Shown here piece after piece: positions 9,201 to 64,000 of a stretch of DNA of 64,000 nt; the stretch's first letter is position 1, and the number at the start of each line of letters is the position of its first letter. Under the pieces are notes generated by a model. The model was not told where the DNA came from. It did not search any database and worked only from the letters and a program-made list of their open reading frames with translations. Location: the IMG/VR virus record IMGVR_UViG_3300042557_000098. The stretch is one strand, 5' to 3'. This DNA comes from a virus. A program made the translations under genes and the position numbers.

Positions 9201-12200
9201 TCAAAGATTTGAGTTATCTCATCCCAGTTTTTATCTATGATTGCAAACAACTGCTCAGCTTTTGCTACCTCAGGAGCTACATCTTCTTTTGTAGCAATAC
9301 CTTCTTTCATTAGTTTAGCAGCAATGTTCTTAATCTTATCTACAACTGTATACTTAAGATTATCTTTAGCTTCTTTATATATTACAGCTCTGTTCTTAGC
9401 AGGGATATCAAATAGGCTTTGATTAGTAGCAATAAGATTTGTAAGAGTAGAATAGGTCATTTGTTGAATAGTATCATGTACTTGTTCTCCTGTAAGACCA
9501 TTAGCAATTAAACTATACTCACTAGTTGGGTCACCTATAGCATCTTCAACATCAATAATACCAGGCTTAGCTAATGCTAACTTAGATTGATATGGAGATG
9601 CGTTCTTATAATAACCTTCTCCTATTCTCTTAAATAACTCTTCTGTGTTTCTTGCAGCTTGAGGACCTAAGAAATATTCTTTAATAAAGTTTGCTAAATC
9701 AGTAAATAACTTAATGATGTAAGGTCTACCATCAGCAGGCTTAGGTGGAACTTTCTTATCTAATACATATTCTCTAAACTCTTCTGCTAGTTGTTCCTTG
9801 ATTTGACCAGGAGTTGCTTCTGAGTATTTAACTTCTTGTCCTGTAACTCTATCTACAAAGCTGCCCTTTCTATTCTTGAATTCATTTACAATAGCCTTGC
9901 GTTCCTTAGGGTCAGAGAACATATTCCAGATAGCATGAAACACTTCATGATATGCTGTCCCAGCCTCTGCATTAGTGTATACATAGATAGCACCATTCTT
10001 ATACATACCCCAAGCCTTTCTTCCTCCTGTAGCTTTGATGACATTCTTCACTCTATATACAGGAACATTAGGTAGGTTAGTTCTTAACCATTGTTCTAAC
10101 TTCTTCCAGTTTTCAGATTTGAATGTCTTTATTTCATTCTCTAATATCTCACGTAAGTCTCCATCTTCATCTTCTAATAATGCTTCTTTTATAGCACCAC
10201 TTCTTACACTAGGGCCCTTTGTTGTAATTTGTGCTGGTGCCTTTTCTTCAATCTCTATTACTACATCATCTGCATCTGCTTCATCAGGTATTGCAAAAGC
10301 TTCTTCATCTTCTTCTACAGCAGTTGCCTTCTGTACAGGTACATTTAAGAAGTTAGCAATAGGAGCTTTTAAAGCTCTTCCCATATCTTCCTTCTTAATA
10401 TTTGCAGCAATTAAAGCTTCCTCAGCTTTAGCTAAGTCTTCTCCTTTTAATATCTTAATACCATTATCAATATCTCCTTTAGCCAATAAATTACGATTAG
10501 CTGTGAAAGCTATTCTAGTTCCCTTTGGAGTAATAAATATATTCTTAGTCTTACCATCTAATACAAACTTTGAACCAGTCTTAGTTTCTATTGGAGCTTC
10601 TTGTGTTTCTCCTACAGTAAATGTTTCTTCTTCTTCTGCAGAAACAGGTGTTGCAGCTGTAGGCTTAATGCCACCAGGAACAACAGTCTTAGGCACAGTT
10701 CTAACTATCTCTGTAATAGTAAAGTTGTCAGCAGCATCGCTAAGTGTAAAGTATACACCCTCTCTATTAGTATCTTCAGGAGATTCTAACGCAGTAATAT
10801 CAGTAAACAAAGGAATCTCATCAGCTGTTCTTCCCTCATCTGATAACAAATATGTTTGATAGTTTTGCCATTCTTTTGTTTGTGGAATACCATTCTCACC
10901 AATACCTATGATTTCTTCATATGTTAAATTATATTCATCTGTGTTTTGTACCTTTCTAGCATTAACATTATTGTACATGTTTTGTAGAAGAGTGACAATT
11001 GCATCTTTCTGAGTTTCCATTGCTTGTGGTGTAAAAGAAAGACTCTCTCCTTTACCAGAGAAGAACAATCTTAATTCACCATCTGCTCTCTCAAACCATA
11101 TACTATTATAACCAGGGTCTTTGCCTTCTTTAGGTTTGCCCCAGAATGTAACACTTCTTAACCAGTCAATTAAATATTCACTTCTAGCTTCTACACCACC
11201 ATCATCAAACACATTGTTAGATAATTGATTAAGAACCTCATAGATAGTTTCAGCTTCTTTAGTATTGAACAGTCTGTTCTTTAACTTAACATAAGCATTA
11301 TCTAATACTAAGAATATTCTACCAAGCACATCTGTAAACTCTGTGCTTCCTTTACTAATATCTTTTGCAACAGTAGGCACTTCAATTAACTGCTTTTCAA
11401 CTAAGTCTTTGTCTTCAATTAATCCAGCAGCCTTTACAGACACAGCAGCACTTGGATCAGTAACCTTCTTACCATCAGGTAATGTAATACTAACTCTAGT
11501 AGGTCTTCCAAAAGAAGGAGTGATTGATTGTAATCTAACAGCAGGGTCTTTTAATGTTTCATTTCTGAAAGCAATATATTGATCTTTTAACTCCTTTCTA
11601 GTTTGCTCAGGTGTGTTGCTTCTGAACATTGTTTCATTACCAAAGTCAGGACCCCATTGTAAACTCTCGTCAGGCATTACTTGGAACACAGCATTCTCTA
11701 ACTTATCTTGACCTTCTGCAAGAGGTTGCCCATCTTGACCTACCAATACAAAGTTACCATTACCTTGATCTTCAACCATTACTAATGCAATAGTCTTTGT
11801 TGGATCTATGTCTGTATTGTTGTTCTGTAAATATGAAGTAAGTCCTGGTATAATGTTGTCTTCATTTGCAGAAGTAACTAAGACACCAAATATATTATTC
11901 TTATTAGGGAATGAGTTGAACTTATTACCAAAGTAATTTGCACGTGCATAGCCTAATATATTCTTACTAGCAACAGTAGATGTAACTAATATCTTTGGAC
12001 CTTTCTTAGAAGTAGGTTCGTACTTAACACTATATGGAGTATTGTCTAATTGTTCCTTACTTAATGTACCAATAACTGCATTAATAAGTTTACCATCACT
12101 CTTTAACTTTTTCTCTTGTTCTTTCTGTAACTTATAAGCTTTAGCAACATCTTGAAATCTAGTTAAAATTGCTTCTCTAGCTTTTAAGTCTTGTTCATAT

Positions 12201-15200
12201 TCCTTTAACTGATCTTGTAAACCTTGTAACTCTTCTCTTAATTCAGCAACACTGCGTTCATTAGGAGTTACATCTAACTCATCAATATTGGCAAGATCTC
12301 TTTCAAACTCAATTAAGTCTGACATTAATTCAGGGTTAGTTCTTCTAACTTCTGGATTAGCATTCAAATATTCTTGTAAAGCTAATGGAGTGTAAGGTAA
12401 GTTTGGATATTTAGCTTCAAACTTCTTAATCAGATCTAATGCCAAATCTACAGCAGTATCTAAAGCTTTCTCAACATTAGTTAAGAGCTTAGACAAAGCA
12501 TTAATATTTTTACCAGTATCTAATATTAAATCTTCAACAAGAGACTTTTGTTCTTTTAATTCATTGATAAAGTCTTCACTTTCTGCAGGAAGCTCACCTA
12601 TATTCTGAACCATGTCAGCAATGTAAGCTTGTGTAAACTCAAGTTCTTCTTGTTGAGATTCTAATTCTCTAATCTCATCAATTAACTTATCTCTTAGTTT
12701 AGATAATTTACTTGCAGCTCTAAGTGCGTTGGCTGTGGTTTTTTTGAACGCATTCTTCTTAGTCATCTCACCAGCCTTAAGCTTGGTTTCAACATTAGTA
12801 AGATCGCCTGTTATCTTCTCAAGTTCATTGTATTTTTGTTCTAATAACTTTTGTGTAGACATTAGCTTTGATGATGTTTCATCAAACATGTCATTTAGTA
12901 TTTTTAATCTAGCTTCTCTTTTAGCAGAAAATTTTGATTCTTTTAAACTAACAAATTCATCTAATGCTTGTTTTTGAATTGGTGTAAGTTCACCAACAGC
13001 CATAATCATAGGAACATCATATCCTTCTTGAGCTACAAATTGACTACCTGTAACCTCAATAGATTTAATCTTTCCTTTAGTGTCTCTGTACACAAAGTTT
13101 AATACTCCATCTTTAGGGGAGTATTCTAATCTACCTTTAACTTTCTTACCTTTACCAAAGTTAAATTGAAACACAGTGTTACTATGTTCCATATAGTATT
13201 TGGCTTTTTTATTATTTAAAGTGTCTGACACTTTGCCTAATTTATAGCCAGCTAATTCTTCTTTAGAGATGTCTCTTACAACACCATTAGAATCCTTAAT
13301 CTTAATAGTACCATCTTCATTTTCTCCAAGGATAGTTAATCTTGGAAATCCATAAACCTCATTACCATCTTTGTCATACTTAACAGTTCTACCTAAGTAG
13401 TATTCTGTATCTACTTCAATATCTTCTTCACCATCCTTAGTCTTAACTTTTACAGTTTCTTTCTTTGGAGCATCTTTATCCATAGTTTCTGCAGTGTCAT
13501 ACTTACTAGGATTGTTCTTTATATCATTATATTCAAACAAGAAGTTGTCTCTACGCAAAGCAAGCTCTGCAACATCTTCTAATGTCTGCATTAATTCATC
13601 TTCATTAATAGACTTTGATGCCTTAATTTTTTCAACAGCTGCTATGTAAGAATCACTGTCTCCATTAGTTAAGTCATTAACAACAGTAGTAGTATCAATA
13701 CCTACAGCATCTAACACTGTCATTAATTGAGGAAGTCTTTCATCATAGTCTGCCACCTTAGTTGCAGCATATATCATCTGATCCATCACCTTTGGTGAAT
13801 AGACAGGCTTACCATCAGCATTTACTAACCCACCATAGCGTACATCTAATGATTGATATAATGATTTAATGTTCTGAGCAGTAACTTCTAAGTTAGCTAA
13901 TCTTTGTAGATATGCTTCTTTAGTATCTGTATCTAATGCCTTACCTTCTGATTGTAACTGTGCAAATCCCTCATCAGTCATTGCTAGAGTTTTATACTGA
14001 GCAATGTCGCTTTGAACAAGATCAAATCTACCATACTTAATACGAGGAGTTAGATAGTTGATTATGTAATCACGCTCTAAGTCTTTGCTCTCTAGAATAT
14101 CACCTCTTCTTATTGTTGTTTCTCTTTCCTCTTGTATAATTGTACCTCTATTAACAGATCCTTTAACTTCTTTAGAGAAGTCAGACAAGATAGCATTATT
14201 AAATTCTGTAATAGCAGCTTGTGTATTCTTTGACTTTTCTTTTGCTTCACCAAACTTACCAGCACCTAACATTAATGCTCCAGACAATCCACCAATAAGT
14301 ATGTTCTCCATACCCTCATTAGTAGTTAATGTTTCACTAATTCCTGCAGCAACACCATCTAACCAATTAGTTGGTTCGTTGTTATATTTCTTATTGTAAT
14401 AGTTTTCTGTAGATTTGCCAATTGCGTATTGTGCACCTTCCTCAAATGCTTCTGAAGCAGAGAAGGTATATGGTCTCACCTTATTTAATGTAGATAAGAT
14501 TTTTCCAAATCTATTAGGAGCTGCTATATATTTACCAGTAGCGTCTGTTGTAATTTCACCAATTTCTTTTGTAAGAGAATTAACAATCCCTTTCTCCCCT
14601 TTGTATGTAGCTCCTAGTATTTTAGGAAACTGAATATAGTTAGTAGCAGTTAATAAACCAACGTTTGCAAAGTAAGAAGAATTACCCACTTCTTCAGAAA
14701 GTTGATTAATCTTTAACAGATCTTCTCCCATAGGAGCTTGACCACCATTTGCTTCTTTATATTCTTCAATCTTTTTATTTCTAAAATCATTAAGCGTATG
14801 GTATGCTTCAAAGCCAGCCTCACCCACTGTACCTAAAGCTGCAACAGTAATTCTACCTCCTTGACCTAATGAGCTATAAGATGATAAAAACTTATCAGAA
14901 AGTCCTTTAAGTTTACCATAAGTAGAAGCTGCTTTATCTGCAGCAAGCAATGCTTCTTCTGAAGCAGCTAAAGCTTGAGCACCCTTACCCACTGAGAACA
15001 GTCTAGCTGTAAGAGGGATTGATTTTAGAGCAGCAGCATATGCTCCTCCTGACAATGCAGCACCTGCAGCAAAGCCTAAGTTTTTAACAACTCCATCCCA
15101 AATAAAGTTAGCACTAAATAACTTACTTGGAGAATACCAATCTTGTTCTCTTTCTCCTGCTTTATAATAGTTAGGCATTATGTTTTCAGAAGCCTTTACA

Positions 15201-15697
15201 ACTTCCTCATCTAAAAACCTATTCATGTCATTATCATAAATATCTGCAAATCTTCCAGAGTTTGCAAAGTTAGCTAGACCATTTACTAGTCCTACAGTAG
15301 ATTGTAAGAAAGTAGTTCCTGTAAGAACTAAACCTTTACCTACACCATTAACCATTTTACTAGCCCAACTTTGACTTTGAGCATAAGCATCTTCATTATT
15401 ATAATCACCAGGCATGAAGCTCTTATATCTATCACTACTTACCTCTGTTAAAGTTCTATCAATGCCACCTGCCATCTTCTTACCATCATTTCTACCTGCA
15501 GTTAATACAGCATTCTCAAGAGCACTTAATGCAGTAGGAGTAGGTTCTCCATCCATCATAGGAATACCAGTTCCTTCGTATTGACTTCGCAAGCTTTGAT
15601 AAGGAACACTTGCAGGTCTTTCAGGAAGTTCAGTAGGTGTATAATCATTCAATGATGAATCTAATAATGCCCTGTCTATTAAAGGAGTATCTGCCAT
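3260..15697 (-). CDS. Giant 4145-aa virion protein. Zincin-like HEVFH motif at residues 1917-1921; DFDID at residues 3287-3291; long coiled-coil stretches. Candidate virion RNA polymerase or ejected cargo protein
   Basis: Single uninterrupted 12.4-kb ORF with an ATG start. HExxH lies in a hydrophobic context (AYHEVFHAIW). The DFDID motif recalls the catalytic triad of double-psi beta-barrel RNA polymerases. The position at the distal end of the structural operon matches where crAss-like phages place their giant proteins. Confidence 0.85.
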   Translation of the reverse strand: MADTPLIDRALLDSSLNDYTPTELPERPASVPYQSLRSQYEGTGIPMMDGEPTPTALSALENAVLTAGRNDGKKMAGGIDRTLTEVSSDRYKSFMPGDYNNEDAYAQSQSWASKMVNGVGKGLVLTGTTFLQSTVGLVNGLANFANSGRFADIYDNDMNRFLDEEVVKASENIMPNYYKAGEREQDWYSPSKLFSANFIWDGVVKNLGFAAGAALSGGAYAAALKSIPLTARLFSVGKGAQALAASEEALLAADKAASTYGKLKGLSDKFLSSYSSLGQGGRITVAALGTVGEAGFEAYHTLNDFRNKKIEEYKEANGGQAPMGEDLLKINQLSEEVGNSSYFANVGLLTATNYIQFPKILGATYKGEKGIVNSLTKEIGEITTDATGKYIAAPNRFGKILSTLNKVRPYTFSASEAFEEGAQYAIGKSTENYYNKKYNNEPTNWLDGVAAGISETLTTNEGMENILIGGLSGALMLGAGKFGEAKEKSKNTQAAITEFNNAILSDFSKEVKGSVNRGTIIQEERETTIRRGDILESKDLERDYIINYLTPRIKYGRFDLVQSDIAQYKTLAMTDEGFAQLQSEGKALDTDTKEAYLQRLANLEVTAQNIKSLYQSLDVRYGGLVNADGKPVYSPKVMDQMIYAATKVADYDERLPQLMTVLDAVGIDTTTVVNDLTNGDSDSYIAAVEKIKASKSINEDELMQTLEDVAELALRRDNFLFEYNDIKNNPSKYDTAETMDKDAPKKETVKVKTKDGEEDIEVDTEYYLGRTVKYDKDGNEVYGFPRLTILGENEDGTIKIKDSNGVVRDISKEELAGYKLGKVSDTLNNKKAKYYMEHSNTVFQFNFGKGKKVKGRLEYSPKDGVLNFVYRDTKGKIKSIEVTGSQFVAQEGYDVPMIMAVGELTPIQKQALDEFVSLKESKFSAKREARLKILNDMFDETSSKLMSTQKLLEQKYNELEKITGDLTNVETKLKAGEMTKKNAFKKTTANALRAASKLSKLRDKLIDEIRELESQQEELEFTQAYIADMVQNIGELPAESEDFINELKEQKSLVEDLILDTGKNINALSKLLTNVEKALDTAVDLALDLIKKFEAKYPNLPYTPLALQEYLNANPEVRRTNPELMSDLIEFERDLANIDELDVTPNERSVAELREELQGLQDQLKEYEQDLKAREAILTRFQDVAKAYKLQKEQEKKLKSDGKLINAVIGTLSKEQLDNTPYSVKYEPTSKKGPKILVTSTVASKNILGYARANYFGNKFNSFPNKNNIFGVLVTSANEDNIIPGLTSYLQNNNTDIDPTKTIALVMVEDQGNGNFVLVGQDGQPLAEGQDKLENAVFQVMPDESLQWGPDFGNETMFRSNTPEQTRKELKDQYIAFRNETLKDPAVRLQSITPSFGRPTRVSITLPDGKKVTDPSAAVSVKAAGLIEDKDLVEKQLIEVPTVAKDISKGSTEFTDVLGRIFLVLDNAYVKLKNRLFNTKEAETIYEVLNQLSNNVFDDGGVEARSEYLIDWLRSVTFWGKPKEGKDPGYNSIWFERADGELRLFFSGKGESLSFTPQAMETQKDAIVTLLQNMYNNVNARKVQNTDEYNLTYEEIIGIGENGIPQTKEWQNYQTYLLSDEGRTADEIPLFTDITALESPEDTNREGVYFTLSDAADNFTITEIVRTVPKTVVPGGIKPTAATPVSAEEEETFTVGETQEAPIETKTGSKFVLDGKTKNIFITPKGTRIAFTANRNLLAKGDIDNGIKILKGEDLAKAEEALIAANIKKEDMGRALKAPIANFLNVPVQKATAVEEDEEAFAIPDEADADDVVIEIEEKAPAQITTKGPSVRSGAIKEALLEDEDGDLREILENEIKTFKSENWKKLEQWLRTNLPNVPVYRVKNVIKATGGRKAWGMYKNGAIYVYTNAEAGTAYHEVFHAIWNMFSDPKERKAIVNEFKNRKGSFVDRVTGQEVKYSEATPGQIKEQLAEEFREYVLDKKVPPKPADGRPYIIKLFTDLANFIKEYFLGPQAARNTEELFKRIGEGYYKNASPYQSKLALAKPGIIDVEDAIGDPTSEYSLIANGLTGEQVHDTIQQMTYSTLTNLIATNQSLFDIPAKNRAVIYKEAKDNLKYTVVDKIKNIAAKLMKEGIATKEDVAPEVAKAEQLFAIIDKNWDEITQIFEEQLLSYSIEFDENDSTQTTNENNTGRGDYQESEKIDKFKKANAAIKLLLATIPYRNARGKRTLSSINGVRLIPMSKVYIDLKNALYNSDTVDDMMEKLREFVESQKPEYGVIYQRLTGQPSSEKLNPYANIKTDADLQLVTSFYNVMKGQAPDVVTVYTAPDGTVVTTDMSVGTASKQIAIDMENSIISSIQKNLGKYYRYDAPNKMYVAIKKNIENQQLGSLERSVLFMKSLGVDVPIRMIRRLGFESDFNKAVAGIKKNLLEAEQIKFISSKTINTAGRVKEIADMLAKIQNPDFESTYFNLEGDRVQSFIGGNAISSLRDFLTKISNKKQLVGSRYEYLLTDNFANTGSVFMDKIFDKDSGNKLPKGDEILSTAYAGGMIDEGLGKRKDPASLTPSERLKEELNLNLAGYYMNLVPGDASLDWANYVGNTVTLNSLKKDNSSIHKVFKGYFLSELAVSREGRKIVQDENETRKSTDLRFFKNILGPSLHEDIVSYDPSKEKSLEDVYTHFESRINTAIDAFVKKDIERRKAVYSNYNILSEDENGFNFNGVEFEKKRSLSENDVDVNIKYLSVNYMINNIELHKLVYSDPYFYKDELKRIKSFLSPRQAIIYGSAGLNAVMNNVYNDDYTDIDDLGYTDFTADYFKTITLEDVKGVADVEGFAKEYSSFTETDGGGMISMQAYRNFRIRASNWNPNEERQYRYDVAFEKRDKGQDLSPNESNLLEAGNPQVKSAYTPLKPIVAGAKMSKQSYNDVVLDKFALYPLSYRVLHEINKDSNAIKLYNKMQENNIDYAVFDSGRKVGADVLVKLYDSKGNFNDAPIADTDKINIPFSIISVQSEVPSKDEAFVTRGSQITKLVTLDFLQAGVPFDFMSDEKDFNKRLEAWENLEDETAMANASPFFKEILENQDLLEEMTDIGYKNLLDRLGIKQTKAGFEIVDPEKIAQTLRSELFKREVNRNIVAALVGFEKGQVLIEASPMYSQVRNILYSIVDKNIVRPKINGGLKVQIPSTGFESVRPVGKNGLFESDVLKFYEKGGERVAEVMVGRWFDSDMSDEALLEYLNETKEGQALLKGVAFRIPTQKQNSVDVIKIAKFLPKEFGDSVVVPAALVQKVGSDFDIDKLSMYFKNIYKGKDGKPKLIPYFGMGKDAIKKFEEMFDKGEFLTKEQLQELDRYIAEEQIMLEDLIEEKSNASKLITAIVGNLNGLINEDELTQEFTRGIKAKDQIINLLYKKSIENQYIQSLENIIGSEANYTRLVTPNNAKLLKDMSIDITDKLGLGSFDYSSTDNMLNQIFMSRLRQAFVRGKYAIGLAAVAQTNHAQNQRSNMYVDKSMMYKLSKSDQKWLGDANVNFSKYNTVRVGGRTVPSLSGIKDANNKYDISDIIGQFIDGYVDIAKGPWIMELGASPNVAPTWLFLVKIGVPIKEVAYFMNQPIIRDYVRELENSGYTWLFNDSTVAAIKDSEKYKVDPSKVQGLNSIPNVAALEKNIGKKSFDVAGKAEQQFILNEFLKYGMMANQLFKVVQGSNFDTTAFNDPMLIFKKEEQLSQARETIISSVDNLLNKSFIGRVRIGLRDSRNAIGQTALTSDTRRVRGVLQSVLRPYVNLNDRQFVKVARKAVNDLFDWAVQINPTFKINMERDLLSKDGTAKQITDYFNDIKNDPEHVLHNNVIVNSLAPKFAGTEEERPNNLYMPGKDNKVYDQNKVIYGFEELRNYMESTGDLPLYKKLVKLSILQSGLSTSAISFTSLIPYDDFVEEYNDILSKLETLPNLADFATLNVFERNNWNDDEIVPHKKAQWKTEKQKDGKLKTRYDNNALTILNTGANIAMRDKKIPQLIKISTLSRESTKDIIVYSWEEIPQGKTRAEMVKASDFSFIKKGLFKKVIDDGVDPLITYNRSGYTFIVYKAINAWGDSFRANEFYDFANKSKIDNGFIKVDEVSDDTIKSVFIGGQKTPPVEASEIDDVLNKKDKGCKK

Positions 15698-52941: not shown

Positions 52942-53236
52942 ATACTGTTTGTATTAATTGTTCTTCTTCCTCTCTTGATTCCATCTCTGCCACCCACTTT
53001 TCTATAGGGCAAGCACAAGATAAACACCTAGTTTTTGCTGATAGAACGCACCCACAATGTGTACAATGCTTATCAAACCTTCGAGGTTTCTTAGGTCTGT
53101 TCTCAGAACACCATTCACAGGTATCACAAATAGCCATACGTTGTTGGCTAATTTCCCTGATGCGTTCCTTCATGTCATTAGCTGGAAACAGATTATTCTT
53201 CCAGCCCTCGTAAATCTGAGAGAAGTTGATCTTCAT
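52889..53236 (-). CDS. 115-aa Zn-ribbon protein (CDTCEWC ... CTHCGC ... CLSCAC) with an acidic tail
   Basis: Three Cys pairs with zinc-ribbon spacing; ATG start. Confidence 0.6.
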   Translation of the reverse strand: MKINFSQIYEGWKNNLFPANDMKERIREISQQRMAICDTCEWCSENRPKKPRRFDKHCTHCGCVLSAKTRCLSCACPIEKWVAEMESREEEEQLIQTVYGKQGSEDSEDSTGRSD

Positions 53237-53579
53237 ATGTAATTTTACTTTTTAGTAAGTTGATCAGAGCTTCTGTTTTTTCTAGTGTCACCTGAGAGGA
53301 ACGTTTCTTTTGTTCTGAGGTTTCAGCACTGGCTAGGAACTCAAGCATTAGGTTTTTCTTCCTAGTCAAGTCTTCTAGACGTTTCTTGGCTTTCTTCTCA
53401 TTGAAATAAAACTTCCCAAACCCAGAGATTTCAATACTGTTATTTGTGTCCATCGCCTCGTTGGCAGATTGAAACTGGTGGTTTATCACTGTCTCAATCG
53501 TTTTCTCAGAAATCATCATCTTCACAGCAAGGGTCCTAACTAGGTAGTCCTTGACAGACATACTTATAGGCTTATCCAT
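53193..53579 (-). CDS. 128-aa HU/IHF-like (DNABII-like) DNA-binding protein. The N-terminal helices and SGFGKF turn are conserved; the beta-arm is replaced
   Basis: ISEKTIETVINHQFQSANEAMDTNNSIEISGFGKFYFNEKKAK aligns with the HU core [43 protein letters not shown]. Confidence 0.55.
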   Translation of the reverse strand: MDKPISMSVKDYLVRTLAVKMMISEKTIETVINHQFQSANEAMDTNNSIEISGFGKFYFNEKKAKKRLEDLTRKKNLMLEFLASAETSEQKKRSSQVTLEKTEALINLLKSKITYEDQLLSDLRGLEE

Positions 53580-53922
53580 GTGCTAAAGTTATTTGCAATA
53601 CAATATTCTTTTCGAAGTTTAGCAAGATGATGGGATTAACCTTCACCTTTGTCCCATCCTTTACAAATATCCCCATCTTCTTTAGTTTGGAGATAATGTT
53701 ATTTATGGCTGGAGATGTACTGTCGTATCTTTCACAAAACTCCTTACGTATATTAGCATAAGAGATGTTTCCTTTTATGGCAGCAAAGGCTATCAATTGT
53801 ATTTCCCTCTTGGTAAGCTTCAAGTCATTCACAGCTGACAGTATTCTATAATACTTCTCAGCCATAGGAATGACGTCTTCCACTGAAGTCTTTAGTCGTT
53901 GTACAATTGGTTTTGCTTCCAT
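53572..53922 (-). CDS. 116-aa putative HTH DNA-binding protein, trimmed to the ATG at 53922
   Basis: The ORF-track start at 53937 is TTG. The ATG at 53922 lies 12 nt downstream of a perfect TTTG-N19-TACCTTTG promoter. Confidence 0.55.
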   Translation of the reverse strand: MEAKPIVQRLKTSVEDVIPMAEKYYRILSAVNDLKLTKREIQLIAFAAIKGNISYANIRKEFCERYDSTSPAINNIISKLKKMGIFVKDGTKVKVNPIILLNFEKNIVLQITLAHG

Positions 53923-53934
53923 AATTAGTTGATA

Positions 53935-53965
53935 CAAAGGTATGTATATCTGGACGATCTACAAA
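53935..53965 (-). promoter_or_regulatory. Bacteroidetes-type sigma-A promoter: TTTG-N19-TACCTTTG, 12 nt upstream of the ATG at 53922
   Basis: Exact match to the Bacteroides/Flavobacterium consensus TTTG-N19-21-TAnnTTTG. Confidence 0.55.
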
Positions 53966-55699: not shown

Positions 55700-56269
55700 A
55701 TGTTTACATTAGCCAAGCTTGTGTTCAAATCATATATGCCTAGACAACTAGAGAAAGGCATGTGGTTTGTATCAAAGCAAAAGGATGTGGTTTATGGACA
55801 GATATATGAATATCTACAGCTCCATGAACTAACACACATACCACAAGATATGGAAAGCTACATTGCTTTCAATGGTGCACCAGTTGAACCATACATTGTT
55901 ATGCCAACACAGAATAAGGATGATAAAGAAGAAATCCTTGCAACACCTGACCAAATAGGTTGGTGGGACCAAGGTGATACTTCTGATGACTTGGAAGACC
56001 TCACAGTTCAAATCATTAATGCCTATGTTTATGGTGAAGATGGTGAGAATGGTGATATAGCATTAGAAGTATTTGACTCTGAAGATGAAGAAGGTATACA
56101 TAGAAATGTAGTCTTCTTTCATAATAAGGTGACTATTAGACATGTAAGTTTTGTGGACGAGCACGAGTATGATGATGAAGATGATGAGGATTGGGAGGAT
56201 GATATAGATGAAGATGATCTCACTGAATACGATCCTGAACCAAATGATGCAGACCATGAAACAGAATAA
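55700..56269 (+). CDS. 189-aa protein with an extremely acidic C-terminal half (DNA-mimic-like)
   Basis: ATG start preceded by the same motif; D/E-rich tail EHEYDDEDDEDWEDDIDEDDLTEYDPEPNDADHETE. Confidence 0.65.
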   Translation: MFTLAKLVFKSYMPRQLEKGMWFVSKQKDVVYGQIYEYLQLHELTHIPQDMESYIAFNGAPVEPYIVMPTQNKDDKEEILATPDQIGWWDQGDTSDDLEDLTVQIINAYVYGEDGENGDIALEVFDSEDEEGIHRNVVFFHNKVTIRHVSFVDEHEYDDEDDEDWEDDIDEDDLTEYDPEPNDADHETE

Positions 56270-56468
56270 TATTAACATTCAAAACGAAGTAGCTATGAGA
56301 AATATCTTAGAATTATTTAAAAACAAGCAGAGAACAGAAGAAAGACCCAAAATCACTATAAAAATCAACAAACCATTTACACCTACAGAGCGTGAAAGAT
56401 TCAATCAATGGTGTAAAGAGTTGAATGTCAGTGCATTATGGGATGATAATAAATTAAGGTTAGGTTAA
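56256..56468 (+). CDS. 70-aa hypothetical protein, trimmed to the ATG overlapping the upstream stop
   Basis: The ORF-track start at 56208 lies inside the upstream gene; the in-frame ATG at 56256 gives a short overlap. Confidence 0.45.
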   Translation: MKQNNINIQNEVAMRNILELFKNKQRTEERPKITIKINKPFTPTERERFNQWCKELNVSALWDDNKLRLG

Positions 56469-56487
56469 TGTGTGGTTAGTAAAGCAA

Positions 56488-56516
56488 GAGCCCTGCAGAA
56501 ATGTGGGGCTTTTTTA
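56488..56516 (+). terminator. Candidate intrinsic terminator (GAGCCC ... GGGGCT plus T5) after 56256..56468
   Basis: 5-6 bp GC stem with a 12-nt loop and a T-run. Confidence 0.45.
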
Positions 56517-56539
56517 TTACACATAAAATAGAAGAGCAT

Positions 56540-56941
56540 ATGATATTGAAAGGAAATACAAGAAAGAGAAGGATTAAAAACCCTCCACGTTTGGTGAAAG
56601 AGATTGATTTAAGCGTTGATACTGGTCATATGAGTCATCATAATATACCTTTACCATTGAAGCCTAGAACAGCTTTATCAGCTAAAATAGGTGAAACGTT
56701 AACTAGTCTTGATACAACACCAAAACAAATATTAAGACAGCAACAGGCTGGACCTATTAATAAGAAGCGTAATAAGAAAAGAAAGGAAGCTAGAATTAAA
56801 AGAAAACAGTATTTACTAAACAAAAAAATAAAGCAAAATGAGAAAGAAAGGATCAAACAACTATTCCAAGAAGGAATTAAGAACAATCAAGACAATGATG
56901 ATGGACAACAAAAAGACTGCAAAGCCTATGTCCATGGCTAA
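56540..56941 (+). CDS. 133-aa highly basic protein with a K/R-rich C-terminal half, trimmed to an internal ATG
   Basis: The ORF-track start at 56501 sits inside a terminator hairpin. Composition KKRNKKRKEARIKRKQYLLNKKIKQ. Confidence 0.5.
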   Translation: MILKGNTRKRRIKNPPRLVKEIDLSVDTGHMSHHNIPLPLKPRTALSAKIGETLTSLDTTPKQILRQQQAGPINKKRNKKRKEARIKRKQYLLNKKIKQNEKERIKQLFQEGIKNNQDNDDGQQKDCKAYVHG

Positions 56942-57146
56942 GTTATCAAAGTTTGTAGCTAACAGTCTTAACAGACCAGTTAATGGTGTTTACATTAAAA
57001 TGTTAGACATGGCACCACAACGCACTAGACGTCAACCAGTTATGACAAAGACAGTATCTACAAAGATGCCTCTTAAAAGATCTGTTACGTTTAGAAAGCC
57101 TACAAAGATAGAGATATCTGAGACAGGTATGACATTCTTCTTTTAA
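56926..57146 (+). CDS. About 73-aa basic protein; start uncertain (ORF track gives 56838)
   Basis: Overlaps the upstream ORF in another frame; the ATG at 56926 gives a 16-nt overlap. Confidence 0.4.
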
Positions 57147-57163
57147 CCACTAATACCACACAC

Positions 57164-57403
57164 ATGTCTTACAGCCTAATCTTTAGTGCAAAACCACATT
57201 GCACACATACAATTACAGTGTACGAACCAGACCAACAAGATTCTTCTTATAGAAGAACAATTAATTCTTGTTCTAAACTAATAGATAGTATATTTGCTGT
57301 GAAAGCAAATTATAAACCATCTAAGAGATTACACATCAAAGGACGCAGATATATGTACATCAGCTCTGATGAGTATAAACTTATTAGATTTAAAAACTAT
57401 TGA
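57164..57403 (+). CDS. 79-aa hypothetical early protein
   Basis: ORF with an ATG start. Confidence 0.5.
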   Translation: MSYSLIFSAKPHCTHTITVYEPDQQDSSYRRTINSCSKLIDSIFAVKANYKPSKRLHIKGRRYMYISSDEYKLIRFKNY

Positions 57404-57465
57404 AATGATTTATTTTATTATCTTTGTATTGTTAATTTGGGTATGGGTCATAGTAGAATGGATGA

Positions 57466-57708
57466 ATGCTCCACTCATGGAAGACAATACAAATAAAGAT
57501 GATGATTCTGCAATTAAATCCAATGATACCAATAGTAAGGGTGTCTGATAAAATGGAAGGTTATGCTTTTTTGGTTATAGATTATAGCCAGGAGCATAAC
57601 CTTTTGTTTACATGTGCTATGGACGATGGTGAGATATGGACATTAACAAACAAAGAGATTAGATTCTGTAAGAACATCTCATTAGAAAGATATAATATAA
57701 ATTTATGA
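57466..57708 (+). CDS. 80-aa hypothetical early protein (start uncertain)
   Basis: ORF-track entry. Confidence 0.4.
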   Translation: MLHSWKTIQIKMMILQLNPMIPIVRVSDKMEGYAFLVIDYSQEHNLLFTCAMDDGEIWTLTNKEIRFCKNISLERYNINL

Positions 57709-57792
57709 TTTTATTCTACATTCAATTAGTCTTAGCAGTGATATGCTGGGCATATATGGTAACTTATGTTTATCAACGTTTAAAAGATAAAT

Positions 57793-58059
57793 ATGGCAAA
57801 AAGTAAAGCACAAATAGCAAAGCTCAAAGCTCATTTCTTTATGTCTATAGGTGATGGCACTGTACACACATTATATGATGACAATGATGATAAAACAATA
57901 TTAGCTGCAGGATTTGCATCAGCTATGATGGAAAATACATATTTATATGATGTTATTAGCACAGCGTTTCTTGTATTATTAGAGGATAAAGAGAAATATA
58001 GTTCTAAAAAGAGCAATGACGTGCCTAAAACAGTGAAAAAAGTGGCAAAAAAGAAATAA
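57793..58059 (+). CDS. 88-aa hypothetical early protein with a Lys-rich C-terminus
   Basis: ORF with an ATG start. Confidence 0.5.
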   Translation: MAKSKAQIAKLKAHFFMSIGDGTVHTLYDDNDDKTILAAGFASAMMENTYLYDVISTAFLVLLEDKEKYSSKKSNDVPKTVKKVAKKK

Positions 58060-58216
58060 ATTTCTAATTTAGTGCATTAAATTACACATTATGAATGAAT
58101 ATTTTAGTTATTATGAGAGCTTACACAAGCTTCCTAAGTCTAAGCAAAGATATTATCTATGGGACATGATTAAATGGTGTGTTAAAGAGTATTTTAAAAC
58201 ATACACAAAATAATCA

Positions 58217-58423
58217 ATGGAAACATATATAGCAGCAGCAGATGTAATAGCTAATATCAAAGCATATAGAAACTCTCTAAACTATGATGACCAGTTTGAT
58301 TTTGACATGGAAACAAAGAGAATAAAACTGAGTGATAAGCGTAGAGACACGCTCAAGAACACAATACGTGCTTCAGAGTATAGAATGAATAGATATGGTA
58401 TACACAAAGATAAAATTAAATAG
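58217..58423 (+). CDS. 68-aa hypothetical protein
   Basis: ORF with an ATG start; flanked by two ~40-aa unlisted ORFs (58091..58216 and 58425..58544) that fill the gaps. Confidence 0.5.
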   Translation: METYIAAADVIANIKAYRNSLNYDDQFDFDMETKRIKLSDKRRDTLKNTIRASEYRMNRYGIHKDKIK

Positions 58424-58556
58424 TATGAAACTAATAGTTAAAGAAGGATCATATGAAGCTGATACACTTTGGGGTATAATAGTTGCAGTGTTAAGTCATA
58501 GATTTTGGCATCTTAGAAAACATGGTAAATGGATGGACTAACAAAAATAAACGATT

Positions 58557-60509
58557 ATGAATATACTCATCTATGATATTGAGACAATGCAGGAGTTATT
58601 CCTCATTGGCATATATAATCCTGAGAGCAAAACTTATACAGAGTTTGAAGTGAGTAAGGATAAGAACCAACTAGATGGGTATATGAGGTTTATTGAACAA
58701 TACCCTGAATACTATTGGGTTGGTTATAACAACTTACGCTTTGACTCTCAAGTGATTGAGTGGATCTTACGTAACTATGACAATTGGCATGAGCTCACAG
58801 CTCTTGAGACAGCTGCTAAGATAGCACAAAAAGCTGCTGATATTATCCATGATGCTAACTACGATGTATTCCCTGAATACAGAGAAGAATGGCTCACACT
58901 TAAGCAGATAGATGTATTCAGAGTGAATCATTATGATAACAAGAACAGAATGGTCTCACTGAAACGACTAGAGTTTGAGATGGATCTAGAGAACATTGAA
59001 GAGATGCCTATTCATCATACAAAGACTAACATGACAGATGAAGACATTCAGCTGACTAAAGACTATTGTAAGAATGATGTTATGGCTACCTATGAGTTCT
59101 ACAAGGTAACGATAGGTCAAACTGAGCATCCATTGTATAAGGGTAATAATCAAATAGAGCTCAGACAAGACATTGAAGAAGAGTTTGGTATACCATGCTT
59201 AAACTATTCTGATAGTAAGATTGGTGATGAGATGATTAAGAAGTTTTATTGTCAAGAGAAGAACATATTATATTCTGATCTACCAAAGAAAGGCTTGTTT
59301 AGAACTGAAGTGAAAGTGAGACATTGTATTGCTGATTACATTACATTCCAGACACCAAAGCTACAACAGTTTTTAAAAGCAATTAGTAAAGAGAAACTAA
59401 CTATCAAAGATGAATTTAAAGAATCAGTAGAGTTTTATGACAACATATACACTTTTGCAAAGGGTGGCTTACATACAGAAAACAAGCCTAAGATATTTGA
59501 AGCTGATGCTGATCGTATTATTGTGGATTGGGATGTATCCAGTTACTATCCTGCTATCATTATTAATAATGGTAAATATCCTCATCATTTGGGCCCTGAG
59601 TTCCTTAGAGGATACAAAACTATGTTTGATAAACGATTGGAGCTCAAGCCTCTTGCTAAGAAGGATAAAAAGATTAAAGGTATTGTTGGAGCACTCAAAC
59701 TCGCAGTTAATTCAGTTTATGGTAAGTCTTCTGACATGCAGTCTTGGATCTATGACAGACAGCTCACAATGTTCACAACCATTACAGGAGAACTAAGTCT
59801 TCTCATGCTCATTGAAGCGTATGAACTAGCTGGTATACATGTTATATCTGCAAATACAGATGGAGTGACAATACTTGTAAAAAATGCAAGTTTTGATACT
59901 ATGACTGCTATTAATAAGTGGTGGATGGAGCTGACTAGCTATGAACTAGAGCGTACAGACTATTCTAAGATTATATTCTCAACAGTAAATGACTATCTAG
60001 CAATCAAAACAGATGGAGAAATCAAAAAGAAAGGTGACTTCCTTACAGACTTTGAGCTACACAAGAATAAGTCTGCCAGGATTGTACCTATTGCATTGGA
60101 GCAGTTTTTTGTTAATGATGTGCCTGTGGCTGATACCATTCGCAATCATACAAATATTTATGACTTTTGCCTCAGGCAGAAAGCTAGTAAAGACTTTCAC
60201 TATGAAGGCCATAGCAAAGAGACAAAGACAGTCTATAACAAGCTGATTAGATATTATGTATCTAATACAGGAGAGAAGCTACTGAAAGTGAAGAATGAGA
60301 ACTCAGATAGCACAGCTGTTGATGTGTCACAAGTGGAGGCAGGTGAATGGTTGATGACAGTATGTAATCATCTAACACCAGATCATCCTCTTGACAATAT
60401 CAATCATGCATATTATATTGAGCGTGCTGAACGCATAATACATAAGATACAACTAGAAGGTAAGAAAAGAAAAATTATTGTTAACCCTAATCAAATAAGC
60501 TTATTCTAA
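58557..60509 (+). CDS. 650-aa family-B DNA polymerase with 3'-5' proofreading exonuclease
   Basis: Exo I YDIET, Exo II YNNLRFDSQVI, Exo III YCKNDVMATYEFY, motif A DWDVSSYYPAII, motif B KLAVNSVYGKS, motif C ISANTDGV, all in canonical order. Confidence 0.9.
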   Translation: MNILIYDIETMQELFLIGIYNPESKTYTEFEVSKDKNQLDGYMRFIEQYPEYYWVGYNNLRFDSQVIEWILRNYDNWHELTALETAAKIAQKAADIIHDANYDVFPEYREEWLTLKQIDVFRVNHYDNKNRMVSLKRLEFEMDLENIEEMPIHHTKTNMTDEDIQLTKDYCKNDVMATYEFYKVTIGQTEHPLYKGNNQIELRQDIEEEFGIPCLNYSDSKIGDEMIKKFYCQEKNILYSDLPKKGLFRTEVKVRHCIADYITFQTPKLQQFLKAISKEKLTIKDEFKESVEFYDNIYTFAKGGLHTENKPKIFEADADRIIVDWDVSSYYPAIIINNGKYPHHLGPEFLRGYKTMFDKRLELKPLAKKDKKIKGIVGALKLAVNSVYGKSSDMQSWIYDRQLTMFTTITGELSLLMLIEAYELAGIHVISANTDGVTILVKNASFDTMTAINKWWMELTSYELERTDYSKIIFSTVNDYLAIKTDGEIKKKGDFLTDFELHKNKSARIVPIALEQFFVNDVPVADTIRNHTNIYDFCLRQKASKDFHYEGHSKETKTVYNKLIRYYVSNTGEKLLKVKNENSDSTAVDVSQVEAGEWLMTVCNHLTPDHPLDNINHAYYIERAERIIHKIQLEGKKRKIIVNPNQISLF

Positions 60510-60715
60510 TGGAATCAAAAAAGAAAGCAGAATATTTTATTGCAGTGTTCTCATTAGCAGTATTATCTGAAATGGGACATGAATTAGATATGGATAAAGT
60601 AACAGCAATAGCTAAAGAATCATCAATTATTGCAGTAAACGAAATATTACGTAATACAGATACACCATTTTGGCAAGAAGTAAAACAACATGTAAAAGAT
60701 GGCAAAGATCAATAG
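60509..60715 (+). CDS. 68-aa hypothetical protein (hydrophobic N-terminal segment)
   Basis: ATGA overlap with the polymerase stop. Confidence 0.5.
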   Translation: MESKKKAEYFIAVFSLAVLSEMGHELDMDKVTAIAKESSIIAVNEILRNTDTPFWQEVKQHVKDGKDQ

Positions 60716-60953
60716 AGAGAACATAGCTGACCACTTGGTAGACTATCAATTAGGAATGGTTGGTAAGTCTACACAAGAGGCATTTATGACTAGAGAATGG
60801 TATAGTAAATGGACCATGACACAAGAACAACATGATCAGTTCAAAGCTTATGCTATTCCCTTGTTAAAGAAGGTATTTAAAATAAACAAATCAAGAGCTG
60901 AAGGTGTGTTCGCATGGTTTGATTTACAATTTGGATTACGTATAAAAGATTAA
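60699..60953 (+). CDS. 84-aa hypothetical protein
   Basis: ORF with an ATG start. Confidence 0.5.
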   Translation: MAKINRENIADHLVDYQLGMVGKSTQEAFMTREWYSKWTMTQEQHDQFKAYAIPLLKKVFKINKSRAEGVFAWFDLQFGLRIKD

Positions 60954-60955
60954 CT

Positions 60956-61582
60956 ATGGATATTAGATTATTAAAAGTGTTTCCTCAGGCAATAATGTGC
61001 ATGACTATGGAAAGAGAGATTACACAACAAGAACTAGATTTTATAATGAGTCATCACAATGAGTTATTAGAAAACATGGGTAACAACTCGTCTGAGGATA
61101 TGCATATTCTTAGACATGAACCACTTGCTGAGCTTAGAAAGTTTGTACAAAAGTGTTTAGATATATACTTTTTAAATGTATATCAACCTAGAACACCAAA
61201 GCATGCTAGATTAACGCTCACACAGTCTTGGTTAAACTTTACTAAGACAGGTGAACATCATCATTTGCATTCACACCCAAACAGTGTTGTCAGTGGTTGT
61301 TTATACATATCAGCTAAAAAAGGCCACGATATGATAACCTTTCAGAAGAGAGACATACCTCATTTTCAAATAGAAACTGAGAAGACAAATGAGTTTAACT
61401 CTTTAGAAATGAGTGTGGCTGTTGGTACAAATGATATAGTTATGTTTCCATCAAATATGTTACACAGAGTGCCAGAGACAACAAACACTGACATGAGAAT
61501 AAGTCTTGCATTCAATTCTTTCTTTAGAGGTAAAATAGGTAATGTTGATTCAACTGGTGTTAACTATTTAGAAATTAATTAA
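60956..61582 (+). CDS. 208-aa 2OG-Fe(II) oxygenase superfamily protein (PF13759/TIGR02466-like)
   Basis: GEHHHLHSHPNSVVSGCLYI and NDIVMFPSNMLHRVPETTNTDMRISLAFNSF match the H.HP...SGVYY and LFPS.L.H.V.....RIS..FN signatures of that family. Confidence 0.6.
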   Translation: MDIRLLKVFPQAIMCMTMEREITQQELDFIMSHHNELLENMGNNSSEDMHILRHEPLAELRKFVQKCLDIYFLNVYQPRTPKHARLTLTQSWLNFTKTGEHHHLHSHPNSVVSGCLYISAKKGHDMITFQKRDIPHFQIETEKTNEFNSLEMSVAVGTNDIVMFPSNMLHRVPETTNTDMRISLAFNSFFRGKIGNVDSTGVNYLEIN

Positions 61583-61584
61583 TT

Positions 61585-61986
61585 ATGCGTATATATCCAT
61601 CAACAAAGATTTATATAGCTCAAAGCAAAATACATGGATTAGGTGTATTTGCAGACAGAGTCATAACAGAAGGAGAAATAATAGAAGAAACTCCTTTATT
61701 TGATATAGGAATGAATCCAGGTGAAGCTTCTTTCTGTGTATTACACTATAGATTCAATTGGCCCCATGATGCTGGAGACAGTTGGACTAAACAGGTTATA
61801 GCAGGAGGGTTTGGTTCATTTTACAATCATTCAGCTAATAATAATGCTGCATGGAGGTCTAATTTAGAAAAAGGCACATTTGAATTTGTTGCCTTAAGAC
61901 ATATAATAATGGATGAAGAAATCACTGTATGTTATGGTGGTGATAACTACTGGAACGATGGTAGGAACACTATTGAAGTAAAATAA
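61585..61986 (+). CDS. 133-aa minimal SET-domain protein lysine methyltransferase (vSET-like)
   Basis: HGLGVFADRVITEGEIIEE (GxG motif), GGFGSFYNHSANNNA (NHS motif) and MDEEITVCYGGDNYW (post-SET-like) line up with the Chlorella-virus vSET blocks GGYGVFARKSFEKGELVEE, LGFGAIFNHSKDPNA and IGEEITISYGDDYW. Confidence 0.8.
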   Translation: MRIYPSTKIYIAQSKIHGLGVFADRVITEGEIIEETPLFDIGMNPGEASFCVLHYRFNWPHDAGDSWTKQVIAGGFGSFYNHSANNNAAWRSNLEKGTFEFVALRHIIMDEEITVCYGGDNYWNDGRNTIEVK

Positions 61987-61997
61987 AACTAAAATTT

Positions 61998-62189
61998 ATG
62001 GCTTATTCAACATGTTGTGGGGCATACTCTCGTATGCCTGAGATAGACATTTGTCCTGAATGTAGGGATCATTGCGATTGGGAAGATGATGAGGAAGAAG
62101 ATGATGAACCATCTGACAATCAGATTAATAACAATCATAGAACAGAAGGAGGAATTTCATTTACATCACCTGCTTGGAATGGCAGATAA
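61998..62189 (+). CDS. 63-aa Cys-rich and acidic small protein (CCGAYSRMPEIDICPECRDHCDWEDDEEEDDE)
   Basis: ORF with an ATG start. Confidence 0.45.
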   Translation: MAYSTCCGAYSRMPEIDICPECRDHCDWEDDEEEDDEPSDNQINNNHRTEGGISFTSPAWNGR

Positions 62190-62200
62190 AATAAATAATC

Positions 62201-62758
62201 ATGGGAGCATGTCAATTTAAAGGAAGATATGGTGGTAAAACAGCAGAAGAAGCATATAATAGAGCTTGTGAAGAAGCTGAACTAGAGTATGGTCATCAAG
62301 ATGGATATAATGGTACAATTAGTACTACACATGGATTTAGAGATGAAACAGAGTTATATAATAAAAGTAAGTTCAATGATGTGTCTGTTTATATACGTCA
62401 TAGATTTGATAGTCACACTATGAACAAACGTGATTGTTCAGCTATATGCGTTGTAAAACCTGTAGGTAATAAGAACAAGACTAAGTCACAAGTGGAGCAC
62501 ATAGTTACACCAGGTACGAAGAAGTGGGTACTTAAATATGTTGTTCAACGTGGTGATCATGTTATTGGTTCATGGAATACAAAAGGTGATGCTGTAAAAG
62601 ATGCTCGTAAATATACAGAAAAGCACCAAGTACCTACATCAATAGTAATTAAAAAGTATTTAGAGAAAGGTGATAACTTAGTAGCTAAGATAACATACAA
62701 GAAATCACCAACAGAAAGAGATGGTGAGTGGATATTCTTTGGTTACGCAGCAGAATAA
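62201..62758 (+). CDS. 185-aa hypothetical protein
   Basis: ORF with an ATG start. Confidence 0.6.
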   Translation: MGACQFKGRYGGKTAEEAYNRACEEAELEYGHQDGYNGTISTTHGFRDETELYNKSKFNDVSVYIRHRFDSHTMNKRDCSAICVVKPVGNKNKTKSQVEHIVTPGTKKWVLKYVVQRGDHVIGSWNTKGDAVKDARKYTEKHQVPTSIVIKKYLEKGDNLVAKITYKKSPTERDGEWIFFGYAAE

Positions 62759-62760
62759 TT

Positions 62761-62976
62761 ATGAAACATAAACCAATGACAACCAGGGAGATATACAGAG
62801 GAGGAGCAAGACTACCCACAAAGAACATACTTAACACAACATTAGTTACACAGCTTGAGGTTGTAGAAGATGGTGTAGTTAAGTATTATAATTGGGATAA
62901 GAATGCCAAAGTGATAGCTTTGATAGAAGATACACATAAGACATTACGTATATACATTAATCATAAAAACAAATAA
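62761..62976 (+). CDS. 71-aa hypothetical protein, trimmed to the first ATG after the upstream stop
   Basis: The ORF-track start at 62728 overlaps the upstream gene. Confidence 0.45.
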   Translation: MKHKPMTTREIYRGGARLPTKNILNTTLVTQLEVVEDGVVKYYNWDKNAKVIALIEDTHKTLRIYINHKNK

Positions 62977-62977
62977 G

Positions 62978-63205
62978 ATGCCAGATATTTCATGTTGTAA
63001 AGGTGGTAGTTGTATGCTAAGACTAAATTGTCACAGATATACAGCAACTCCTGATGAGTTGGGACAATCATATTTTTCAGATCCCCCATATAAAGTGAAC
63101 ATGATGTTAGACGACAACATAAGTAGTCTAGGTGTTGTAACATTAAGTTGTGCTTATTTTTGGAACAATGACAGATATAAAAATGAACAAAAACCTACAA
63201 ATTAA
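62978..63205 (+). CDS. 75-aa Cys-rich hypothetical protein
   Basis: ORF with an ATG start. Confidence 0.45.
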   Translation: MPDISCCKGGSCMLRLNCHRYTATPDELGQSYFSDPPYKVNMMLDDNISSLGVVTLSCAYFWNNDRYKNEQKPTN

Positions 63206-63345
63206 TGATGATTGGGAGAGAGAATCTCTCAAAGATTTAGTATATTTGCAAGAGACACAACAGATACTTGAAGAGGAGTTTAGAAGAATAAAACTACCTG
63301 CTCAGATAGTAGTAATTGATAAAGACAACATACTAAACAGAGAAC

Positions 63346-63972
63346 ATGAACATCAAAGTAACCCCTTACCATTTTGAGCAACTACTCAAAGATGGATATA
63401 CATTAGACATGATATTTCTTCTCAAGCTTATTGATGAAGAATTTGATATCAAGACATTAGCAGAAGGAGGACCAAAGACAGACATGCTATGTCAAACCTT
63501 ACGCAGAAAAGGATTAGTGTCTGAACAATTTAAGATTACAGTCCTTGGTAGGAATCTATTGGAATTCATGAACACACGTGCTAAGACTAGCAAGATTGTA
63601 AAGAAAACACAAACCTTTGCTGAGTTTGAGAGATGGTGGGCTGCCTATCCAGGAACAGATATCTTTACACATAAAGGTAAAAGCTTCTCAGGTGGTAGAA
63701 CACTGCGTGTTTACAAAGATGACTGCCAACTAAAACTAGATGCTATCCTTGCTGAAGGAGAATACACAGTTGATCAGCTCATAGCAGCATTAGAATATGA
63801 AGTGTTACAGAAGAAAGAGAATTCTTTCAAGACAGGTACAAATAGATTAAGTTACATGCAAGGTAGTCTTACATATTTGAATCAACGCTCATTTCAAAAC
63901 TATATAGAGCTTATCAATCAGGGTGTGGTAATTAAAGAGGCTGACGAACCAATTAAAGGAATGGACATATGA
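63346..63972 (+). CDS. 208-aa hypothetical protein. A further ORF starts at 63969 (ATGA overlap) and runs off the window
   Basis: ORF with an ATG start. Confidence 0.6.
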   Translation: MNIKVTPYHFEQLLKDGYTLDMIFLLKLIDEEFDIKTLAEGGPKTDMLCQTLRRKGLVSEQFKITVLGRNLLEFMNTRAKTSKIVKKTQTFAEFERWWAAYPGTDIFTHKGKSFSGGRTLRVYKDDCQLKLDAILAEGEYTVDQLIAALEYEVLQKKENSFKTGTNRLSYMQGSLTYLNQRSFQNYIELINQGVVIKEADEPIKGMDI

Positions 63973-64000
63973 GTTTTGAAGATTTAAAACGAGAAGTTCA

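Follow-up and report, generated by a model that had tools for sequence, protein, structure and literature searches.

The 64,000-nucleotide (nt) stretch of IMG/VR virus record IMGVR_UViG_3300042557_000098, hereafter the window, carries side by side a gene for a 2-oxoglutarate (2OG)-Fe(II) oxygenase of 208 amino acids (aa) and a gene for a minimal SET-domain protein of 133 aa. A preliminary description of this DNA had proposed that the two form a protein-modification module. Comparison with related loci revealed that they do not make up a conserved system of two genes. It is likely that the two genes are independent accessory cassettes, which lie next to each other because they share a hypervariable insertion slot within the replication module, and not parts of a writer-plus-oxygenase mechanism. 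All four possible states of the slot were found within one phage lineage, in which the two genes are separately gained and lost, and the pairing was absent from every other lineage examined.

Distribution of the SET and Oxygenase Genes

The conserved 84-aa gene that borders the slot on the left served as the anchor of an unbiased census, for which 160 loci were fetched from IMG/VR and JGI metagenomes; 106 of these were non-redundant and informative. Both the oxygenase and the SET gene were present in 3 of the 106 loci, the oxygenase gene without SET in one, SET without the oxygenase gene in 7, and neither gene in 95. The counts obtained by tblastn and by profile hidden Markov models (HMMs) were identical. 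The "empty" loci with slots of ~416 nt were considered as possible carriers of divergent SET genes, but none was found in them by profile HMMs, and their cargo belongs to a different family.

Gene order is conserved in the closest relatives of the window, and the proteins encoded on either side of the slot share 92–100% identity with those of the window. The SET gene follows straight after the 84-aa gene, without an oxygenase gene, in SET-only relatives (L003, L008–L015), while in other loci (L089–L092, L095, L096) the oxygenase gene is followed at the same junction by a full 133-aa SET gene. SET proteins called as 123 aa are full 133-aa genes as well, with a start 2 nt past the oxygenase stop. 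In L093 and L094, the oxygenase gene precedes a 40-aa ORF and SET is missing; the possibility that this ORF is a SET remnant was rejected, as it encodes an unrelated small hydrophobic protein. Loci with the oxygenase only, in the same slot, include L093 and L104. Overall, at least 8 non-redundant contigs from the lineage bear the pair, their oxygenases being 71–99% identical, and the SET-only state was found in at least 11 non-redundant loci, including the 7 of the unbiased set.

In the neighbour-joining trees of the SET, 84-aa and 185-aa genes, loci with both genes and SET-only loci are interspersed, and a locus with both genes (L235) and a SET-only locus (L236) have a near-identical 84-aa gene. 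The oxygenase gene has therefore been gained and lost several times relative to SET. Outside the window lineage, no pairing was detected. No 2OG oxygenase was found by phmmer or by the family profile within 8 kb of SET in 87 loci ascertained by SET (9 SET-only members of the window lineage and 78 loci from other lineages), the 80 loci ascertained by the oxygenase had no SET gene within the same distance, and no oxygenase gene was present in 55 loci anchored on a SET-associated helicase (see below). The preliminary description had suggested a co-occurrence analysis and had itself named a failure of the two genes to co-occur in relatives as an argument against the module. This is essentially what was found.

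Organization of the Slot and Its Gene Junctions

Between the conserved 84-aa and 185-aa genes, the slot (window positions 60953–62201) serves as a hotspot where cassettes are exchanged at a conserved TAAnnATG-type junction. Its length among relatives is 5–1409 nt, and at least ten cargo families other than SET and the oxygenase were found in it (L097–L253). Examples are a membrane protein of 108 aa (14 loci), a basic protein of 58 aa (10 loci) and, in L206, an HNH-like endonuclease of 271 aa. A 63-aa ORF located downstream of SET in the window has no Pfam, PHROG or PADLOC match.

In a DNA alignment, the oxygenase gene stands out as a clean insertion of 629 nt, flanked by a repeated ATTAAyTATG junction whose two copies lie 629 nt apart (Table 1). 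The same junction joins the 84-aa gene to SET, the oxygenase gene to SET, and the oxygenase gene to the 40-aa ORF, and the stop-nn-ATG spacing is generic to the slot. Both ORFs lie exactly where the preliminary description had placed them, and the start of SET, as it had noted, is the third nucleotide after the oxygenase stop (TAA at 61580–61582, ATG at 61585, with a spacer of 2 nt). Its statement that the pair lies directly after the DNA polymerase was not borne out, as two small ORFs (68 aa and 84 aa) intervene. Both the oxygenase and SET are real genes, because each has many metagenome homologues of conserved length (50–98% identity).

Table 1. Features of the slot region and related genes of the window.
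Feature	Position	Strand	Description and evidence
Left slot border, 84-aa gene	60699..60953	+	Conserved; anchor of the census; 59–100% identity in ~160 fetched loci
Left copy of repeated gene junction	60949..60958	+	ATTAACTATG; stop of 84-aa gene, 2 nt, ATG of oxygenase gene; from sequence; insertion of oxygenase gene starts here in DNA alignment
2OG-Fe(II) oxygenase, 208 aa	60956..61582	+	PF13759; variable cassette, absent from most relatives
Right copy of repeated gene junction	61578..61587	+	ATTAATTATG; stop of oxygenase gene, 2 nt, ATG of SET; from sequence and DNA alignment
Minimal SET-domain protein, 133 aa	61585..61986	+	PF00856; putative S-adenosylmethionine (SAM)-dependent protein lysine methyltransferase; variable cassette, divergent allele in window
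63-aa ORF	61998..62189	+	Cys-rich N-terminal part, acidic; variable slot cargo in only some relatives; cargo cluster of 6 loci
Right slot border, 185-aa gene	62201..62758	+	Conserved; homologue 5–1409 nt downstream of 84-aa gene in relatives
DNA polymerase	58557..60509		phrog_1252
68-aa small ORF	60509..60715		Between polymerase and oxygenase genes
HU-like protein	53193..53579	-	PF00216, 37.9 bits (cut-off, 22.4)

According to the explanation preferred here, the slot would swap whole-gene cassettes at the short conserved junction, presumably through recombination when related phages infect the same cell, and the adjacency of SET and the oxygenase gene would result from their use of one landing site and from their physical linkage. 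The alternative put forward in the preliminary description is that the two genes are a co-selected module, the products of which modify one target (HU, a ribosomal protein or a virion protein) by methyl-lysine writing together with hydroxylation or demethylation. This alternative is improbable. The genes are indeed adjacent, co-directional and 2 nt apart, and the pair recurs within the lineage. However, each gene also occurs without the other in the same slot, the slot states are interspersed in the trees, the pairing is absent from all of the other lineages examined, the junction spacing is not peculiar to this pair, and the oxygenase is not JmjC-like.

Some observations weigh against the preferred explanation. 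SET is present in 3 of the 4 oxygenase-bearing loci and in 7 of the 102 loci without the oxygenase gene, a nominal association (Fisher one-sided p = 0.002) in which kinship and linkage are ignored. The two genes may therefore still be linked functionally in this sub-lineage, and a weaker variant of the module idea would have the PF13759 oxygenase act there on the same target as SET. In addition, the oxygenase has the residues HxH...H (H105-x-H107...H170) and R181-x-S183 in place of the canonical HxD/E...H triad. As to the association, SET is expected to be enriched beside the oxygenase gene simply because the cassettes are physical neighbours, with or without a common function. As to the motif, the chemistry of the oxygenase is a prediction only, because the PF13759 family has HxH...H and not HxD...H. 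Of the preliminary interpretation, the identities and the adjacency of the two genes stand, while the module is not supported.

The SET-Domain Protein

The 133-aa protein matches the SET domain profile (PF00856) at 47.8 bits, well above the gathering cut-off of 22.4, with residues 18–118 covering profile positions 1–105 of 105, and no PHROG or NCBIfam family match was found for it. It contains a single Pfam domain and only two cysteines, and corresponds to a stand-alone SET core without the Cys-rich zinc clusters of the pre-SET and post-SET regions. In an alignment of 20 members, the motifs HGxGVFA (G18, G20), YNHS (N81, H82), EEIxVxYG (Y117) and Y122-W123 are invariant, and YRFNWP and YWxDGR are invariant motifs of the family's own. 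The window protein reads HGLGVFA, YNHS and EEITVCYG, and every family-invariant motif residue is retained in it.

Among PDB entries, the family profile best matches Schizosaccharomyces pombe Set7 (E-value, 2e-17) and Plasmodium PFL0690c (7e-17), and it also matches vSET of Chlorella virus PBCV-1 (1n3j; 4e-15). In the vSET match, the GxG, NHS and EEIxxSYG/DYW blocks are aligned, in agreement with the "block for block" resemblance noted in the preliminary description. The AlphaFold2 model (predicted local distance difference test score, 83.7) has a SET fold, with vSET (3kma) as the best Foldseek match in the PDB (E-value, 5e-9; target TM score, 0.85; ~24% identity). There were 339 PDB matches at E-values of 0.001 or less, and the best 50 listed are all SET or PR-domain proteins, with vSET in first place. 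Both the sequence and the predicted fold thus confirm its identity as a vSET-like minimal SET protein.

Like the phage protein, vSET (PBCV-1 A612L; 1n3j, 3kma) is a virus-encoded single-domain SET protein of ~120–130 aa that lacks Cys-rich pre-SET and post-SET regions. The two differ in that identity is only ~24% and that the YRFNWP and YWxDGR motifs belong to the phage family. vSET is a homodimeric H3K27 methyltransferase, and the host of the Chlorella virus has histones. A bacterial host has none, and therefore the substrate of the phage SET protein must differ from that of vSET. Set7 (5h6z) and PFL0690c (4rz0), which are small eukaryotic histone methyltransferases, are comparable to the phage protein in size and fold, but share ~29% identity with it and do not share its genomic context. 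SET enzymes are also found in prokaryotes, namely Methanosarcina Go1-SET, the chlamydial SET protein NUE and RomA/LegAS4 of Legionella. Those of the pathogens are secreted effectors directed at the histones of the host. The archaeal Go1-SET methylates the native DNA-binding protein MC1-alpha (PMC3980110), and thus sets a precedent for a target among nucleoid proteins.

In the SET tree, the window allele is an outlier with 68–70% identity to the other alleles of the lineage, which cluster together. It sits within flanks that are 92–100% identical to those of relatives and is shared by L174 and L088 only; its donor is unsampled. Acquisition of the oxygenase gene and this divergent allele as one block was considered and rejected, as six other contigs have the oxygenase gene beside the common SET allele. 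Tandem SET paralogues were observed in four loci. In L084, for instance, a second, divergent SET ORF (PF00856, 50.8 bits) is located directly upstream of the family SET gene (7597–8004 and 8001–8393), and the same arrangement was seen in three other loci.

The unusual divergence of the window allele could be taken as a sign that the protein is catalytically dead or serves as a binding decoy. This is very improbable, given that G18, G20, N81, H82, Y117, Y122 and W123 are all retained in the window allele and that the length of the protein is conserved across more than 200 clusters. Since the motifs for SAM binding and catalysis are intact, the enzyme would, during infection, most likely transfer methyl groups from SAM to lysine of an abundant protein, either of the host or of the phage.

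SET Genes in Other Phage Lineages

The SET subfamily is encoded by ~360 IMG/VR contigs. No relatives were revealed when its signature peptides were looked for in the genomes of 185,579 bacterial and archaeal species, and among 50,697 deposited phage records only two matched the SET protein. These two are probably one 735-kb megaphage, having the same length and the same match, and both are absent from the list of 138 GenBank phages that bear the oxygenase. A megablast search of the region against the same 50,697 records gave no match, and the PADLOC models of systems for defence against phages and counter-defence gave none for the oxygenase, SET or the two ORFs downstream. A description of this phage SET family was not found in the searchable literature, where the only passing mention concerns ORF62 of Stenotrophomonas phage Ps15. 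Many members are already labelled "SET domain-containing protein" by the JGI pipeline.

In 60 of the 87 SET-ascertained loci, SET is followed at a 0-nt gap by a gene for an SNF2-family helicase. The lineage of these loci is another one, myovirus-like and equipped with T4 gp13-like, sheath and PolB genes (L002, 6001–8153; L004–L007; many of L016–L087). In a census anchored on this helicase (55 non-redundant loci), SET was found immediately upstream in 41 loci and was absent from 14. The replication modules of at least two unrelated lineages of phages thus have SET as an accessory gene, which is frequent but can be dispensed with. The adjacency of SET to SNF2 is much more recurrent than that to the oxygenase gene. 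Inteins (Intein_splicing Pfam domain) interrupt some of the SNF2 helicases encoded after SET, which are then 748–959 aa long, compared to 585 aa (e.g., L004, 6417–8663; L067, 8399–11278). The helicase of the window lineage is a generic superfamily 2 (SF2) enzyme encoded ~4 kb from SET; it was considered as the counterpart of the SET-abutting helicase and rejected, as it is not of the SNF2 type.

The best guess for the target of the SET enzyme would be a DNA-associated protein, because of the position of the gene in the replication module, the HU-like protein encoded by the phage and the Go1-SET/MC1-alpha precedent. The HU-like ORF, named as a candidate target in the preliminary description, is a real one (Table 1). 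An alternative explanation sees in SET a "chromatin" writer acting with the machinery of DNA transactions, which would methylate host HU/IHF or the phage HU-like protein, together with the SNF2 ATPase in the other lineage, the oxygenase being irrelevant. The occurrence of SET in the replication modules of two unrelated lineages, the helicase linkage in both the SET-ascertained and the helicase-anchored loci, the HU-like protein and the archaeal precedent are all consistent with such a role. It is nevertheless rather unlikely, considering the 14 helicase-anchored loci without SET, the distant and non-SNF2 helicase of the window, and the presence of SET in only ~10% of the window lineage. The version in which methylation of an HU/IHF-type protein would remodel the host nucleoid or organize phage DNA, coupled to SNF2 in one lineage, appears more doubtful still. 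If true, SET and the downstream SNF2-type remodelling ATPase would parallel the eukaryotic SET plus SNF2 chromatin machinery.

The 2OG-Fe(II) Oxygenase

The 208-aa protein belongs to PF13759 (2OG-FeII_Oxy_5; 74.4 bits against a cut-off of 27), the family to which it had been assigned in the preliminary description, and matches phrog_81 at 8e-33. Its score to TIGR02466 (55.7 bits) is below the NCBIfam cut-off of 62.5. The predicted fold is an intact double-stranded beta-helix in which His and Arg residues are conserved, and H102, H105, H107, H170, R181 and S183 are invariant in the PF13759 family. Of the superfamily relationships listed earlier (JmjC lysine demethylases, prolyl hydroxylases and AlkB), the likeness to prolyl hydroxylases and AlkB is supported by the structural neighbours, while neither a JmjC profile match nor a JmjC-type structural neighbour was found for the protein. 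The nearest structure is the uncharacterised protein 2rg4.

Thus, the enzyme appears to be of the prolyl-hydroxylase/AlkB-like double-stranded beta-helix type and would most likely hydroxylate a protein or a nucleic acid independently of SET. It could, with rather low probability, be an AlkB-like enzyme of nucleic-acid repair or modification serving the replication module, as its AlkB neighbours and the location of its gene would allow, and not a protein hydroxylase. Higher scores were obtained with prolyl hydroxylases of proteins (OGFOD1, 16.5; EF-Tu prolyl 4-hydroxylase, 15.3), though by small margins.

Homologues of the oxygenase are present in 138 GenBank phages, mostly cyanophages and pelagiphages. 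The oxygenases of these phages belong to the same Pfam and PHROG families as that of the window and are typically accessory and often multi-copy; the window protein differs from the cultured-phage copies in sharing only 25–37% identity with them and in scoring below the TIGR02466 cut-off. In the loci ascertained by the oxygenase (L254–L333), up to five PF13759 paralogues were found within 16 kb, and at least two in 10 of the 80 loci. The presence of 2–5 paralogues in some of these loci agrees with the expanded, multi-copy 2OG-Fe(II) oxygenases described in pelagiphages (PMC9599517). The PF13759 family is a widespread and often multi-copy accessory in aquatic phages.

Genome Context and Host

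The window comes from a tailed phage, with the terminase, portal, major head protein and tail fibres encoded on the - strand and the replication module on the + strand. The phage genome is ~115 kb, and related contigs reach 113–117 kb. These contigs mostly have JGI-style names, with a few from Tara and marine assemblies, and the lineage appears, judging by contig names, to be mainly of freshwater origin. The structural module includes a giant ORF of 4145 aa (3260–15697, - strand) with no Pfam match. A small ORF (53572–53937) adjoins the HU-like ORF and has weak, below-threshold matches to Sigma70_r1_1 and a helix-turn-helix family.

The G–C content of the window is 35%, and that of the oxygenase and SET genes is 33–34%. 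No Shine-Dalgarno motifs were found ahead of the starts of + strand genes at 55700–64000, and a scan for promoters and terminators gave no signal beyond shuffled controls. The terminase is closest to that of Leptolyngbya phage Lbo-JY46 (40%), followed by those of Cellulophaga and Flavobacterium phages (~32%) and crAss-like phages (27%). As its nearest relatives are from Bacteroidota-infecting phages and one Leptolyngbya phage, the host is probably a member of Bacteroidota. The lack of Shine-Dalgarno motifs, the G–C content and the terminase neighbours together suggest a Bacteroidota (or cyanobacterial) host.

Significance

Both enzymes belong to known families. Had the module been borne out, it would have represented a new type of protein modification in phages, but the evidence is against it. 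The locus offers a clean case of genes exchanged as cassettes at conserved stop-nn-ATG junctions. Interest now centres on a coherent vSET-like family in uncultured freshwater tailed phages, with ~360 contigs in two unrelated lineages and no PHROG assignment, together with the SNF2 adjacency. We know of no phage SET protein with a known substrate and, to our knowledge, protein lysine methylation as a tool of phage takeover is essentially unexplored. The SET protein is small and easily expressed.
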